NCBI RefSeq assembly: GCF_000963705.1
Contig: NZ_LAJY01000137.1
Span: 1-24,000 of the forward strand
Reading direction: 5' to 3'
From: Elstera litoralis
Lineage (GTDB): Bacteria > Pseudomonadota > Alphaproteobacteria > Elsterales > Elsteraceae
DNA: 24,000 nucleotides
The notes beneath the pieces are model-generated. The model was not told where the DNA came from. It searched no databases and worked only from the letters and a program-made list of their open reading frames with translations. The stretch's first letter is position 1. Every line of letters begins with the position of its first letter. Of the stretch, positions 2 to 8,349 are shown one piece after another. Made by a program: the position numbers and the translations under genes.

Positions 2-427
2 CTCGCCGATGTCGCCAAGGCGCTGCTGCATCAGGTGCCGCACGTCGGCCTGACCATCGATCCCATCGAAGGGCGCGGCTTTGAGTATCACACCGGCGTC
101 GGCTTCACTCTTTTCGCCCGCACGGTGCGCGGCGAATTGGGGCGTGGCGGGCGCTATCGGGCCGGGCCGGAGCAGAGCGAGGCTTCGACCGGCGTGACGC
201 TGGAGATGGACGCGATCCTGCCCGCCGTGCCCGCACCGCCGCCGCGCAAGCGCCTCTTTTTGCCTGTTGGAACGCCAATCGACGTAGGCCCCCGCGCCCG
301 CGCCGAGGGCTGGATCACGATTGCCGGGCTTGACCCGTTGGAAGCGGTTGACGAAACCGCAAAGCGCCTAAACTGCCACGCAATTTTCCGGGGCGGTCGT
401 ATTATCGAGCTTGAGGAACGCGCATGA
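2..427 (+). CDS. hisZ: ATP phosphoribosyltransferase regulatory subunit HisZ, C-terminal part (5' end lies outside the window)
   Basis: The frame is open from the window edge. The translation ...[25 protein letters not shown]...GRGGRY resembles the HisZ/HisRS-like core. Stop TGA 425-427 overlaps the purA ATG (ATGA), a typical hisZ-purA arrangement. Confidence 0.75.
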
Positions 428-1715
428 GCCACGTTGTTGTAGTCGGCTCCCAGTGGGGAGACGAGGGGAAGGGCAAGATCGTCGATTGGCTGTCGGAACG
501 CGCCGATGTGGTCGTGCGCTTCCAGGGCGGCCATAACGCCGGTCACACGCTGGTTATCGACGGGACCGTCTATAAGCTCTCGCTGTTGCCCTCGGGCGTC
601 GTGCGCCAGGGCAAGCTGTCGGTGATCGGCAATGGCGTCGTCGTCGATCCCTGGGCCTTGCTCGCCGAAATCGAACGCATCGCCGCCCAAGGCGTGAAAC
701 TGACACCGGAAAACCTGCGCGTCGCCGATAATGCCGCCCTCATTCTGCCGCTGCACGGCGCGATTGACCGGGCGCGCGAAGAGGCGAGCGGCGCGTCGAA
801 AATCGGCACCACTGGGCGCGGTATCGGCCCGGCCTATGAAGATAAGGTTGCCCGCCGGGCGATCCGCGTCTGCGATCTGGCCGATCCGGCGGAACTGGGT
901 CAGAAGCTCGACCGGCTGCTGACCCATCATAACGCGCTGCTGCGCGGCCTGGGCGCGGCGGAGATGGACAAGGCCGAGCTGCTTCAGCAGTTGCTCGATC
1001 TCGCCCCGCGCCTACTGCCCTTCGCTGGGCCGGTCTGGCGCTTGCTGGACGCCGCCCATAAGGCCGACAAGCGCATTCTGTTCGAAGGCGCGCAAGGGGC
1101 GATGCTGGATGTCGATCACGGCACCTATCCCTTCGTCACCTCGTCCAATACGGTTGCCGGGCAGGCCGCCGCCGGATCGGGCCTCGGGCCGTCGGCGCTG
1201 TCCTATGTGCTGGGGATCACCAAAGCCTATACCACCCGCGTCGGCTCCGGCCCCTTCCCGACCGAGCTTACCGATGCCATCGGCGAGCGGATCGGCGCGA
1301 CGGGTAAGGAATTCGGCGTCGTTACCGGGCGCAAGCGCCGCTGCGGTTGGTTCGATGCCGTCATGGTCCGGCAAGCCATCAAAGTGGGCGGCATCACCGG
1401 CATCGCCCTGACCAAGCTGGACGTGCTGGACGGGTTCGACGAACTCAAAATCTGCACCGGCTATCGGTTGGACGGCGAAGAACTGGACTATCTCCCGGCG
1501 CTGGCCAGCGCCCAGGCGCGGGTCGAGCGATCTATGAAACCCTCGAAGGTTGGGCCGAAAGCACGCAAGGGGCGCGCTCCTGGGCCGATCTGCCCGCGAC
1601 GGCGATTAAATACATCCGCCGCCTCGAAGAACTGATCGAAGCGCCGGTCGCCTTGCTCTCCACTAGCCCGGAGCGCGATGATACGATTTTGGTCCGCGAC
1701 CCGTTCCACCCGTAA
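424..1715 (+). pseudogene. purA: adenylosuccinate synthetase PurA, frame broken as sequenced by a 1-nt deletion near 1528-1529
   Basis: The N-terminus [21 protein letters not shown]...GGHNAGHT is the canonical PurA P-loop. ORF 424..1635 loses similarity after ...AQARVE. ORF 1347..1715 (frame -1) carries the canonical C-terminus IYETLEGW...[45 protein letters not shown]. Restoring one C (GAG CCG ATC) gives about 430 aa. Confidence 0.9.
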
Positions 1716-1945: not shown

Positions 1946-4040
1946 ATGGATTTGGCTGAGACGGAAACGCTTGATCTCGAAAACCCTATGGATGCGGCAG
2001 CCCCCGCGCCCGTAGAGGAGCGAGACGAGGATACGGAAGGACGCTCGGACGCGGTTGTCGAGCTGAAGCAACGCTTTCTGATCTATTCGGATCAGGCGCT
2101 GCCCCAGCTCGATTCAGGCGATTCCTTTGCGTTCCACGCCCAATTGAAGGCAGATACCGCCCGGCCTTTCTTCGCTCTCCTACCGCCCGCCGAAATGCCG
2201 GCGCGGACGGAGATGCTGGAGGCGATGCGGAACCTCAATGTGCCCGGCATGCTGAAACTTGCCGAATGGGGCAAGATCTATTGGCCGCCGGAAAAGCGCT
2301 ACCGCTTCGTTATCGTTCTGGAGCGTCCGGGCGGGGTGCGGGTTTTCCCCGACATCACCGTGCCGCAAGCACCGCTGCAAGAAGAAGAGTTGATCTCGGG
2401 CTTCTTGACACCGCTGCTCCCGACGGTCCGCGAGTTTACCGGGCGCATGCTGTCGCACCGGGCCATCCGCCCCAATAATATCTTCTATGCCGATGCGGGC
2501 CGCCGCTCGATGGTTTTGGGTGAATGCGTTTCCTCGCCGCCCGCCTACGATCAACCGGCAGTTTTTCGAAACCATCGAAAGCGCGATGGCGCACCCGAGC
2601 GCGCGCGGCAATGGCAATAATACCGACGATCTTTACTCGTTGGGCATTACCATGCTGTTCCTGGTTCTGGGCCGTAACCCGGTTTCGGACCTCGATGATG
2701 ATCGTATTCTCGCCAATAAGATCGAGTTCGGCACTTATGCCACGCTCGTCGGCCAAGCCCGGTTGCCGCTGGCGCTGATGGAGCCCCTGCGCGGGCTGCT
2801 CACCGACGATCCGCGTGAGCGCTGGACGCTGCAAGACCTCGATATGTGGCTGGCCGGGCGGCGGCAGTCGCCGAAACAGCCCAAGCTGCCGCAGCGCGCC
2901 TCACGCCCCTTCGTCTTCAACGAAGTTGAATATTTCAACACGCGCAGCCTCGCCAATGCTTTGGCGAAGGACTATATCAATGCCGTCACCGTCGTGCGCT
3001 CCAAGCAGCTCGACGCCTGGTTGCGCCGCAGCCTGAACGACGAGCCGCGCGCCGAAGCGATGCAGCAGGCGGTTTCCTCCACTGCCAATCACATTAGCGC
3101 TGGGCGCGGGTCGGAAGACCGGCTGGTGGCGCGCGCTTGTGTGCCGCTCGATCCGGCAGCCCCGATTCGCTATCGCGGGTTCGGCCTGAACGTCGATGGT
3201 ATCGGCCCGGCGCTGGCCTCGGCGATGAGCCATCGCGAGCGGCGGCAGTTGATCGCCGAAGTCATTTCCTCGCGCCTGCCGATCCATTGGATTTCGGCGC
3301 AAGCCAAACCGCGCCCGGAAGACCTGCGCGCGGTGCAATTGCTCGACCGGCTTCCGGCGATGATCGATAATCCCGCCATCGGGTATGGCGTCGAGCGCTG
3401 CCTCTACGAACTCAATCCCGGCGAACATTGCCATAGCCCGATTTTCGAGCGGGAATATGTCGCCGATCTTTCGCACATCGTTCCGGCGCTGGAACGGATG
3501 GCGCGGCGCTCCAACCGGCCCGAATCGCCGCTCGATCGCCATATCGTCGCCTTCATCGCCGCCCGCGCGCGGCGGATGAATGAGGATGTGGTGAAATCGC
3601 TGCAAAATCCCGATACGGCCACGCGCGCGCTCGCAACCTTGCGCTTGCTCGCCTCCGTGCAGGATCAGACCAATAGCGGCCCGGCCCCAGCCTTGGCGCA
3701 GTGGATGGCGGGAATGCTCGGCGGGGTTGTCGGGTCTTTCCACCACCGCAAGCGCCGCGAAAAAATTGGCGAGCGGGTGCGGCGTGCGGCGATGGACGGG
3801 CAAATGTCCGAACTTCTGTCGGTCGTCGACGATGAAGCGGAACGCGCCTCCGATACGCGCGGCTTTAACGAAGCCGCCTCGGAATATCGCGCCATCGAAT
3901 ATCAGCTCAAGCAGTTCGAAACCGAAAAGCCGCGCCGGGACGATGAATCCCGCCACTTCGGGGAACAGTTGGCGGCGGCTATCGGTGGATTGCTGGTCAG
4001 TGTGGTGACGGCCGTCACCATTTTTGCGACGATGATGTAA
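1946..4040 (+). pseudogene. tail-anchored protein-kinase-fold protein (predicted pseudokinase), frame broken as sequenced by a 1-nt insertion in the T5 run 2562-2566
   Basis: ORFs 1946..2620 and 2487..4040 join as ...SSPPAYDQPAVF|ETIESAMAHP.... Kinase-like subdomains are visible: HRAIRPNNIF (HRDxKxxN-like with Asp replaced by Ala), VLGE in place of DFG, DDLYSLGITMLFLVLGRNP, and DPRERW. A long non-kinase region follows, ending in a hydrophobic C-terminal helix LAAAIGGLLVSVVTAVTIFATMM. About 697 aa once corrected. Confidence 0.7.
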
Positions 4041-4053
4041 AGGGGCTGTTCCG

Positions 4054-4542
4054 ATGGCTGATATGCTGCGACGCCCAGGCCTGAACCGTGGGCAGAAGAA
4101 GAAAACCTCCTCCGTGGCACTCTTGGCCTGGATCATCGTGCCGGTGCTGATGGTTTTTGCCTGGAAGGTGGCCATTCTGGTAACGCTCGGCATGCTGCCG
4201 ACCTTGGTTGCCCTGGTGATCGACCGCCGCCCGGAAAAATATGCGGCCTATTGCGTCGGCGGTTTCAACCTCTGCGGCCTGGTGCCGTGGGTGGTGAAGC
4301 TTTTCGTTGATGGTCAAACCGGCCTTGCGCTGCAACATATTATGACCAACCCCTTCTCGTGGCTGGTGATCTATGGGGCGGCGGCAATGGGCTGGTTGGT
4401 CTTCTCCTGGACGCCGGAGCTGGTACTGCGCATGACCGCCTTCCGCGACCGCCAGGAAATTTCCTCGCTGCAAAAGCGCCAGGAAACCTTAGTGGAAGAA
4501 TGGGGGCCGGATATTATTCCGCCGCGTGCCGAAGAGTTCTAA
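4054..4542 (+). CDS. small integral membrane protein (about 4 TM segments), function unknown
   Basis: 162-aa ORF starting 13 nt after the kinase-like gene. It has four hydrophobic stretches (LLAWIIVPVLMVFAW, VAILVTLGMLPTLVALVI, YCVGGFNLCGLVPWVV, WLVIYGAAAMGWLVFSW) and is followed by a strong terminator. I recognise no family. Confidence 0.6.
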   Translation: MADMLRRPGLNRGQKKKTSSVALLAWIIVPVLMVFAWKVAILVTLGMLPTLVALVIDRRPEKYAAYCVGGFNLCGLVPWVVKLFVDGQTGLALQHIMTNPFSWLVIYGAAAMGWLVFSWTPELVLRMTAFRDRQEISSLQKRQETLVEEWGPDIIPPRAEEF

Positions 4543-4553
4543 ACACTGATATG

Positions 4554-4595
4554 AAAAACCCCCGCCGAACCTATGTTCGGCGGGGGTTTTCCTTT
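4554..4595. terminator. bidirectional rho-independent terminator
   Basis: 12-bp perfect GC-rich stem CCCCCGCCGAAC (4559-4570) / GTTCGGCGGGGG (4575-4586) with a 4-nt loop. An A-run lies upstream and a T-run downstream on both strands. It sits between the convergent membrane-protein gene (+) and the rsr/Y-RNA unit (-). Confidence 0.85.
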
Positions 4596-4609
4596 TCAGC
4601 CGCTTTTCA

Positions 4610-6739: not shown

Positions 6740-8349
6740 ATGTCTCGCCCAACCTGCGTTATTGGCTTTCTGGGGTCCAATCTGGACGCGCGCGGCGGAA
6801 CCCGCTGGTCCCGCTGGCGGCCCACCATCGGCCTCTGTCATCAGCCGATCTGCGGGTGGACCGGCTGGTTCTTCTGTATCGAACGCCCCATACCGCGCTA
6901 GCGAACCAGGTTGTTGCCGACCTTGCCGAGGTTTCACCGGAAACGCGCGTTGACCTGCGCTGCCTGGATTTCGACGACCCGTGGAGTTTTGAGGAGGTTT
7001 ATGGGCGGCTGCTGGATTTCGCCCGCGCCTATCCTTTCCAGCCCGACCGGGAGGATTATTTAGTCCACATCACGACCGGAACCCATGTTGCGCAGATCTG
7101 CCTGTTCTTGCTAACCGAGGCGCGGTTTATGCCGGGGCGCTTGGCGCAGACCTTTCCCGATACCGATGGGCGCGGAGGCGGGCGCGGCAAGTGGGCGGCG
7201 ATCGATCTTGATCTGTCGCGGTACGATAGCATCGCCCGCCGTTTTGCTGAGGCGGCGCAGGCCGATGCCTCCTTCCTGAAGTCCGGCATTGCCACGCGCA
7301 ACCCCGCTTTCAATCGGCTGATTGCCGATATTGAAACCGTAGTGTTGGGCAGCCGCGCCCCGATCCTGCTGACAGGGCCGACCGGGGCGGGAAAAACCCA
7401 ACTCGCGCGCCGCATTTATGCGCTCAAAAAGCTGAAACATCAGGTTTCCGGGGCTTTTGTTGAGGTCAATTGTGCCACCTTGCGCGGCGATGGGGCGATG
7501 TCCGCCCTCTTCGGGCATCGGCGCGGGGCTTTCACGGGGGCTATCCAGGACCGCCCCGGCCTGCTGCGCACCGCCGATAAGGGCCTGCTGTTTCTCGACG
7601 AGATCGGCGAACTTGGGCTGGACGAGCAGGCCATGATGCTGCGCGCGCTGGAGGAAAAGCGCTTTCTGCCCGTGGGGGCCGATCTCGAAGTCGGTTCGGA
7701 GTTTCAGTTGATCGCCGGGACCAACCGCGATTTGGGGACCGCCGTTGCCGCCGGGCGGTTCCGCGAGGATCTCTATGCCCGCCTCAATCTCTGGACCTTC
7801 CGTCTGCCCGGCCTTGCCGACCGGCGCGAGGATATCGAACCCAATTTGGCCTATGAGGTGGCGCGGTTCGCCGAGCGCGAGGGCCGCAGCCTGCGCTTTA
7901 CCCGTGAGGCGGAAGCGCGCTACCTGCGCTTTGCCCTGTCGGATGGGGCGCGCTGGACCGGCAATTTTCGGGATCTTGCGGCAAGCCTCACGCGCATGGG
8001 AACCCTTGCCCCCGCCGGACGGATCGATCTTGAAACCGTGGAGGCCGAAATTCTACGGCTAACGGCCTTATGGCAGGGCAGCAGCGGGGGGGCTGCGGAG
8101 GATTCGTTAAGCACGCTCGGCTTTGGCCCCGATGCCTTGGATTTGTTCGACCGGGTTCAATTGGCCGAAGTCGTGCGCGTCTGCCGGGCCGCGCGCAGCG
8201 CGTCGGACGCGGGGCGCACCCTGTTTTCCGCCTCGCGCAGCCAGCGGCGCAGCACCAATGACGCCGACCGGCTACGCAAATATCTCGCGCGCTTCGGGCT
8301 CGATTGGGCAGGGATCACCAGCGGCGGGGCCGCACCACCAGGGCCTTGA
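6740..8349 (+). pseudogene. rtcR: sigma54-dependent transcriptional activator RtcR (CARF domain + AAA+ + HTH), frame broken as sequenced by a 1-nt deletion near 6847
   Basis: ATG 6740 gives MSRPTCVIGFLGSNLDARGGTRWSRWRPTIGLCHQP, an RtcR-type N-terminus, and then runs to a stop. The -1 frame continues DLRVDRLVLLYRTPH... into ORF 6856..8349. That ORF has Walker A GPTGAGKT, the sigma54-contact motif GAFTGA, and the C-terminal NDADRLRKYLARFGL. Restoring one G (CCG GAT) gives about 536 aa. Confidence 0.85.

Follow-up and report, generated by a model that had tools for sequence, protein, structure and literature searches.

Organization of the locus

We describe here a pair of adjacent genes in a 24,000-nucleotide stretch of the Elstera litoralis genome (assembly GCF_000963705.1, contig NZ_LAJY01000137.1, positions 1–24,000 of the forward strand), the whole of which we refer to as the window. 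The first gene encodes a large pseudokinase-like protein with a predicted membrane anchor at its C-terminus, and the second a small protein with four hydrophobic segments (Table 1). As assembled, the first gene appears as two open reading frames (ORFs) on the same strand, 1946–2620 (224 amino acids) and 2487–4040 (517 amino acids), which lie between purA (424–1635) and a convergent rsr/Y-RNA/rtcR module and are the halves of a single gene. The original prediction, which was made from the sequence alone, had already joined them into one protein of 697 amino acids, and comparison with relatives bears this out: the window reads GCAGTTTTTCGAA with a run of five T (T5, 2562–2566) where three same-genus genomes read ...GTTTTCGAA with four (T4), and the orthologues in all five of five same-genus genomes are intact, single open frames of 709–718 amino acids counted stop to stop. 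Over the compared part, the corrected protein is 96% identical to the orthologue from genome G002 (P0003), which has 715 amino acids counted from an upstream GTG and serves as the reference for residue numbering throughout.

Table 1. Coordinates, in the window, of the pseudokinase-like gene and its parts, the partner gene and the hairpin that follows.
Feature	Position	Strand	Remarks
Whole pseudokinase-like gene	1946..4040	+	697 amino acids after removal of the extra T; stop codon 4038–4040
Hanks-type pseudokinase domain (predicted)	2054..2867	+	Residues 55–325 of P0003; HRAIRPNN at 2456–2479, VLGE at 2513–2524
T5 run	2562..2566	+	One T more than in relatives; splits the gene into two ORFs; probably an assembly error
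Basic linker and helical C-domain, ~310 amino acids	2865..3842	+	pLDDT 90.6 in its own model; no family or fold match
Long charged helix, predicted stalk, maybe a coiled coil	3834..3962	+	Residues 648–714 form one helix in the model
C-terminal membrane helix (predicted tail anchor)	3966..4037	+	Hydrophobic segment 692–715, reaching the C-terminus
Partner, 162 amino acids	4054..4542	+	Four hydrophobic segments; basic N-terminus; DRRxEKY loop, YGAAAxGW, C-terminal LVEEWG
Hairpin with A tract before and U tract after	4555..4597		Free energy −31.7 kcal/mol, z −7.6

A kinase fold without its catalytic residues

Profile searches and structural models agree in assigning the N-terminal half of the large protein to the Hanks-type kinase fold (two-lobed, PF00069 superfamily). 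A family profile built from 26 members matched MAPKAP kinase 2 among the solved kinases with an E-value of 4e-11 over profile positions 53–324, which is nearly the whole domain. The AlphaFold model of an orthologue (mean predicted local distance difference test score, pLDDT, 86; predicted template-modelling score, pTM, 0.78) had PknB, Stk1, PknA, Pim-1 and calcium-dependent protein kinases as its best Foldseek matches, with target TM-scores of 0.69–0.75. Scores against the Pfam model PF00069 itself stayed under the cut-off (11–17 bits vs 31.7).

The residues on which kinase chemistry normally depends are missing, and they are missing throughout the family. The catalytic loop, HRAIRPNNIF, is encoded at 2456–2485, and a hidden Markov model (HMM) alignment to MAPKAP kinase 2 places its Ala on the Asp of the HRD motif and a hydrophobic residue on the beta3 Lys. 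Residue statistics were taken over 212 distinct family members (conservation elsewhere in the protein was counted over 208). At the beta3 (VAIK) Lys position 188 of the 212 carry Val, Ile or Leu, 11 carry Arg and one carries Lys, while the HRD Asp position is occupied by Ala in 143, Gly in 22, Ser in 17, Asn in nine and Asp in eight. No GxGxxG Gly-rich loop was found among the 212, the consensus at that place being L-P-x-L-D/N-S-P-x-A-x-A-F-x-A. Thus the kinase-like layout, the replacement of the catalytic Asp by Ala and the missing Gly-rich loop, all of which the original prediction had read by eye, stand. The same counts answer the concern raised with it, that the catalytic residues of an active kinase might simply have been misaligned, since one Lys and eight Asp are all that the family retains at the two positions.

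Other elements of the active site have been kept. The catalytic-loop Asn (Asn196) is present in 198 of the 212 members and the Arg before it in 202, and an acidic residue in helix alphaC is kept in 168. An RGxG motif (residues 238–241), located between the APE-like Glu and helix F, occurs in 94–98% of members. At the position of the DFG Asp (211), 130 members have Glu and 67 have Asp (together 197/212), although the usual Phe-Gly does not follow. It had been claimed that VLGE stands where DFG should be, which is right as to place, but an acidic residue is kept there: the HMM alignment sets the Glu of VLGE, not its Leu, on the DFG Asp. By the usual criteria we therefore class the family, on its aligned residues, as one of pseudokinases and not as a misread active kinase, albeit one that, having kept the metal-binding Asn along with an acidic residue at the DFG position, may bind a cation or another ligand.

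G037 and G038, two small genomes that are 99% complete, contain no match to PF00069 apart from the pseudokinase gene; with no other Hanks kinase present there, the pseudokinase needs no active Hanks kinase as its partner or upstream kinase. One canonical Hanks-type kinase was found in the window's own genome (G000), a 502-amino-acid Pkinase-Usp fusion (L114:212–1717, contig C61), and in a sister genome a PP2C-Pkinase fusion is also present (L115).

C-domain, stalk and tail anchor

The kinase-like domain is followed by a conserved basic linker (consensus RRxSPKQPKLPxRASRPF) and then by a region that had been set aside as unassignable, a description that has held up against every search made. 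Modelled alone, this C-domain folds with high confidence (pLDDT 90.6, pTM 0.85) as a mostly helical structure with two small hairpins. Pfam gave no match to it in any of 21 members, Foldseek found nothing below an E-value of 0.1 among solved structures, and a VIA-align comparison with 48,161 chains reached a best Z of 6.2 (OrfY, 86 residues), less than helical models are said to score by chance. A sequence profile of the C-domain searched against the PDB returned only spurious stretches of 23–62 residues of designed armadillo repeats. The last 80 residues of the domain resemble a generic four-helix bundle.

The C-domain is strongly conserved at a limited number of positions. The top residues, each kept in 93–99% of 208 members, are W376, P424, G497, G499, E501, R502, Y505, C513, S515, D548 and R549, and H550 is invariant in smaller alignments. 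Within this list the E-R-Y, C-x-S and D-R-H residues look like a binding or catalytic site. We also considered whether the C-domain might be a second degenerate kinase, an idea raised by its LDPxxP and DGxG motifs and by leads from the Atlas (TM 0.41–0.52 to parts of bacterial kinases); it was rejected, as the profile–profile probability of a match to the kinase domain in hhalign was 0.1%.

Both the charged, coiled-coil-like stretch and the single C-terminal transmembrane helix that had been described for the end of the protein are present. The charged stretch reads EYRAIEYQLKQFETEKPRRDDE, and in the AlphaFold model a single helix runs from residue 648 to the end of the chain, the last 24 residues of which are hydrophobic; D654, A661 and G690 are conserved positions along it. 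The hydrophobic segment runs to the C-terminus in 186 of 208 family members. Since nothing follows this terminal segment, the large protein is predicted to be tail-anchored, with the last helix as its sole hold on the membrane and all the rest of the chain in the cytoplasm.

The four-helix partner and the transcription unit

The ATG of the partner gene, at 4054, lies 13 nucleotides past the stop codon of the pseudokinase gene and is preceded by an AAGGGG Shine-Dalgarno-like motif. The intergenic gap holds no terminator hairpin. The strong hairpin that follows the partner gene probably works as an intrinsic terminator in both directions, closing the two-gene unit; it could serve the convergent minus-strand Y-RNA/rsr transcripts as well. 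The gene arrangement given by the original prediction, a four-transmembrane protein encoded 13 nucleotides downstream and sharing the terminator, is accordingly what the window contains.

Across the family the partner is marked by the conserved motifs GMLPTLVA, DRRxEKYAA, VGGxN and YGAAAxGW, and by LVEEWG near its C-terminus. The positive-inside rule would place both the DRRxEKY loop and the LVEEWG tail in the cytoplasm. No Pfam, NCBIfam or PADLOC model reached its cut-off with the partner, the large protein or the C-domain, and a search of the ESM Atlas with the partner returned its own unnamed family only. One genome (G032) has three extra, unlinked partner paralogues (L111, L112 and L113; E-values of 1e-27 to 1e-31 to the partner profile). 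Their neighbours, which include a 994-amino-acid hybrid histidine kinase just upstream of one of them, a DUF3224 protein and unassigned ORFs, are unrelated and give no clue.

Co-occurrence and inheritance of the pair

The small partner is inherited together with the pseudokinase. Of 41 related genomes, 30 yielded both genes, and in the other 11 neither was detected. In 28 of the 30 the two are neighbours; in the two exceptions they lie on different contigs, in one case at a contig end. In a larger set of 80 named genomes the partner is directly downstream in 74, which include Elstera, Lacibacterium, Stellaceae, Thalassobaculum, Nisaea, Azospirillum, Magnetospirillum, Caenispirillum and Roseospira. 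The six non-adjacent cases comprise two in which the locus or contig ends before the partner and four with a single partner copy elsewhere in the genome (E about 1e-50), such that the partner is kept even when it is unlinked. The pairwise divergences of the two proteins over 54 loci are also closely correlated (r 0.91; partial r 0.75 given purA; not reached in any of 2000 permutations). The co-occurrence across genomes that was expected of a true pair is therefore observed, and we do not regard the pair, recurring as it does across hundreds of genomes, as a chance pattern.

Distribution and gene neighbourhood

A profile of the C-domain recovered 1610 clusters at 50% identity, 993 of them at an E-value of 1e-30 or better, and the best 150 of the 1610 are built alike or are fragments of this architecture. 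A wider locus search, for which a six-sequence alignment was used, showed relatives to be encoded by at least 504 species genomes. When 200 genomes were sampled evenly over the phylum, nine hits were obtained, all in the window's own class; in a sample of closer relatives, the gene was carried by every one of the 16 genomes of the same family and by 13 of the 24 from other families. Azospirillum brasilense and Magnetospirillum are among the carriers, as are nearly complete genomes of 1.4–2.1 Mb. The pair is conserved in, and vertically inherited by, Rhodospirillales-type Alphaproteobacteria. Several metagenome bins with the pair are labelled Comamonadaceae, Flavobacteriaceae or Rhodobacterales, which probably reflects mis-binning or mislabelling. 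In the databases, members of the family carry the label 'hypothetical protein' or, misleadingly, 'serine/threonine protein kinase', and our literature searches found no paper on this gene family.

The surroundings of the pair are those of a housekeeping locus. In eight of 15 diverse loci purA is directly upstream, and the common convergent neighbours on the downstream side encode an rpoH-like sigma factor and an rluD-like synthase. Clustering of the neighbourhoods of 80 loci yielded housekeeping genes only (purA, rpoH-like, rluD-like and a 2-hydroxyacid dehydrogenase) together with antisense ORF artefacts. The ORF upstream of purA in the window (35–427) matches the C-terminal part of a histidyl-tRNA synthetase-like fold; it is probably HisZ, and it accompanies purA in most related loci.

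Proposed role

With moderate confidence, we lean towards a reading in which the pseudokinase and its partner form a non-catalytic scaffold or switch complex in the inner membrane. The pseudokinase would transfer no phosphate to substrates and would act instead as a scaffold or conformational switch, and the two proteins would make up one inner-membrane complex. In such a complex, the tail-anchor helix with its conserved small residues (G690, A694, A695) could pack on the Gly/Ala-rich membrane helices of the partner, while the partner's cytoplasmic DRRxEKY loop and LVEEWG tail could dock on the soluble domains. The E-R-Y, C-x-S and D-R-H residues of the C-domain would then be a ligand- or client-binding site, and the state of the switch may be set by a cation or nucleotide bound at the retained Asn196 and Glu/Asp211.

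Several points weigh against this reading. The mirror-tree correlation between the two proteins may be inflated by saturation, since purA evolves at about half the rate. A search for natural fusions of the pair gave none, which is weak evidence, and the neighbouring genes point to no function. In addition, the retained Asn, the acidic residue at the DFG position and the RGxG motif would allow for ligand binding or some non-canonical activity, and the conserved Cys, Ser, His, Asp and Glu residues of the C-domain could be catalytic instead of binding.

A more specific proposal, which we offer tentatively and think unlikely to prove right as it stands, is that the C-domain is a new ligand-binding or catalytic module (E501-R502-Y505/C513-x-S515/D548-R549-H550), gated by the degenerate kinase domain with its metal ligands and coupled to the membrane by the four-transmembrane partner, the whole being a hitherto unrecognised housekeeping membrane machine specific to Rhodospirillales-type Alphaproteobacteria. 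Retention of the gene in genomes of 1.4–2.1 Mb and in genomes without another Hanks kinase is consistent with a core function over accessory signalling.

Alternative explanations

The alternative that survives best is that the protein is an unconventional enzyme. Either the kinase fold itself, through Asn196, Glu/Asp211, Arg193 and other conserved arginines, would carry out a non-canonical reaction (cf. AMPylation by SelO and glutamylation by SidJ), or the C-domain would be catalytic (Cys513, Ser515, His550, Asp548, Glu501) with the pseudokinase regulating it. The metal-binding pair is kept in at least 93% of members, and the RGxG motif is highly conserved, as are E501, R502, Y505, C513, S515, D548 and R549, alongside H550 with its invariance in the smaller alignments. 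A precedent exists in SelO, which has HGVMNTDN and no HRD Asp, and is nonetheless listed as an active kinase-fold enzyme (PMC12599244). However, in contrast to SelO, the present family is missing the beta3 Lys and a Gly-rich loop as well, its C-domain is almost wholly helical and matches no enzyme fold, and no substrate-related gene is linked to the pair. On balance we consider an enzymatic role of either kind rather improbable, and keep to the non-catalytic scaffold or switch as the better account.

It could also be that in Elstera litoralis the gene is truly broken, a pseudogene that leaves the 224-amino-acid N-terminal fragment and perhaps a restarted C-terminal one; as assembled, the frame is indeed interrupted at 2562–2566. 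The lesion is, however, a single change in homopolymer length, and it lies in an assembly of 1012 contigs and only 1 kb from a one-base deletion in purA, a housekeeping gene of purine synthesis. There, around position 1528 (window 1520–1536), the window has GAGC-GATC vs GAGCCGATC in a same-genus genome, and the match to the purA model is cut at position 368 of 430. This deletion is probably an assembly error and backs the same reading of the kinase-like gene. The rtcR ORF (6856–8349) looks shifted too: its alignment to the family model does not begin until position 42 (40 in Pfam), with the N-terminus outside the frame. On the 3' side of the frameshift in the pseudokinase gene there is no stop and no other lesion, and the protein encoded there is 96% identical to the G002 orthologue. 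Because purA and rtcR show similar one-base faults, the assembly is so fragmented, five of five same-genus copies are intact and no further lesion is present, we conclude that the break, like those nearby, is most likely a homopolymer error of the assembly and that the organism most likely makes the full protein; a genuine pseudogene seems to us quite improbable.

A short contig of the same assembly (G000 contig C810, bases 3–660) carries a second, 100% identical version of the final 52 codons of the pseudokinase gene together with all of the partner gene. This repeat is assembly redundancy or strain heterogeneity, and the frameshift site falls outside the contig.

Finally, that the protein is an ordinary active Ser/Thr kinase, or the kinase component of a mobile anti-phage defence system, is highly implausible and already largely refuted: although some records bear the kinase name from NCBI, and although the MADS6 kinase (E 5e-4) and PD-T4-6 (E 2e-5) were weakly matched, the family as a whole is without the catalytic Lys and Asp, the defence matches amount to 18.6 bits against a cut-off of 460 for MADS6 and at most 22 bits for PD-T4-6 and cover a generic kinase C-lobe only, and the gene has a conserved housekeeping synteny and tracks taxonomy (16/16 genomes of its own family; 9/9 phylum-sample hits in its own class).

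Comparison with known pseudokinases and membrane kinases

In overall plan the large protein recalls PknB, PknA and Stk1, with which it shares the fold and the orientation, the kinase domain lying in the cytoplasm on the N-terminal side of one membrane helix, a layout that is the commonest among bacterial Ser/Thr kinases (atlas preprint 10.1101/2025.01.12.632604). Unlike these kinases, the present family has no Gly-rich loop, beta3 Lys or catalytic Asp, and its chain ends at the membrane helix with no extracellular sensor. It has in addition the cytoplasmic domain of ~310 amino acids and the obligate four-transmembrane partner.

Seven families of bacterial pseudokinases are distinguished in the recent atlas (10.1101/2025.01.12.632604) and review (PMC12599244), and function is known only in scattered cases such as EssB and MviN. 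Nearest by taxon, and in possessing a C-terminal membrane segment, are the GLW pseudokinases, which are proteobacterial, have GLW in place of HRD and have lost the DFG Asp in all members (PMC12599244; 10.1101/2025.01.12.632604). Like them, the present family is proteobacterial, with a hydrophobic residue at the beta3 Lys position and a membrane segment C-terminal to the pseudokinase domain. On the other hand, its catalytic loop reads H-R-A/G-I-R-P-x-N (H in 89%, then R/G and A/G/S), which sets it apart from GLW as that family is described, and its DFG-Asp position is acidic in 93% of members, with the proviso that the alignment register is uncertain in so divergent a loop.

The nearest functional analogy is EssB/YukC, which belongs to the type VIIb secretion system of Firmicutes (PMC9600267) and is a bacterial, membrane-embedded and non-catalytic protein of kinase fold, serving as a scaffold alongside further membrane proteins. 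EssB differs in that its membrane helix is central and its C-terminal domain extracellular, and in being encoded in a secretion cluster, whereas the protein described here appears tail-anchored and cytoplasmic, and its gene is alphaproteobacterial and sits beside purA. Type VII secretion genes (the EssC ATPase, WXG100) are not among the neighbours (hisZ-like, purA, rsr, rtcR, rpoH, rluD), in a search that covered the neighbourhood and not the whole genome, and no EssB chain is among the Foldseek matches listed. A further parallel is the MviN/MurJ-linked pseudokinase of Mycobacterium (ActPs3; PMC12599244), likewise a cytoplasmic pseudokinase on a membrane protein, where it serves as a regulatory platform. 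In that case the pseudokinase is fused to the flippase and has a shortened activation loop; here it is a separate, probably tail-anchored chain with an activation segment of full length, and the four-transmembrane partner is separately encoded.

Implications

Bacterial pseudokinases have barely been studied, and this large family joins a degenerate kinase fold to a confidently modelled domain of no known fold and to an obligate membrane partner. Its presence in genomes without any other Hanks-type kinase means that its role must go beyond regulating an active sister kinase. Its retention in streamlined genomes suggests that the pair may serve a core envelope or membrane function, and it occurs in tractable model bacteria, Azospirillum brasilense and Magnetospirillum.

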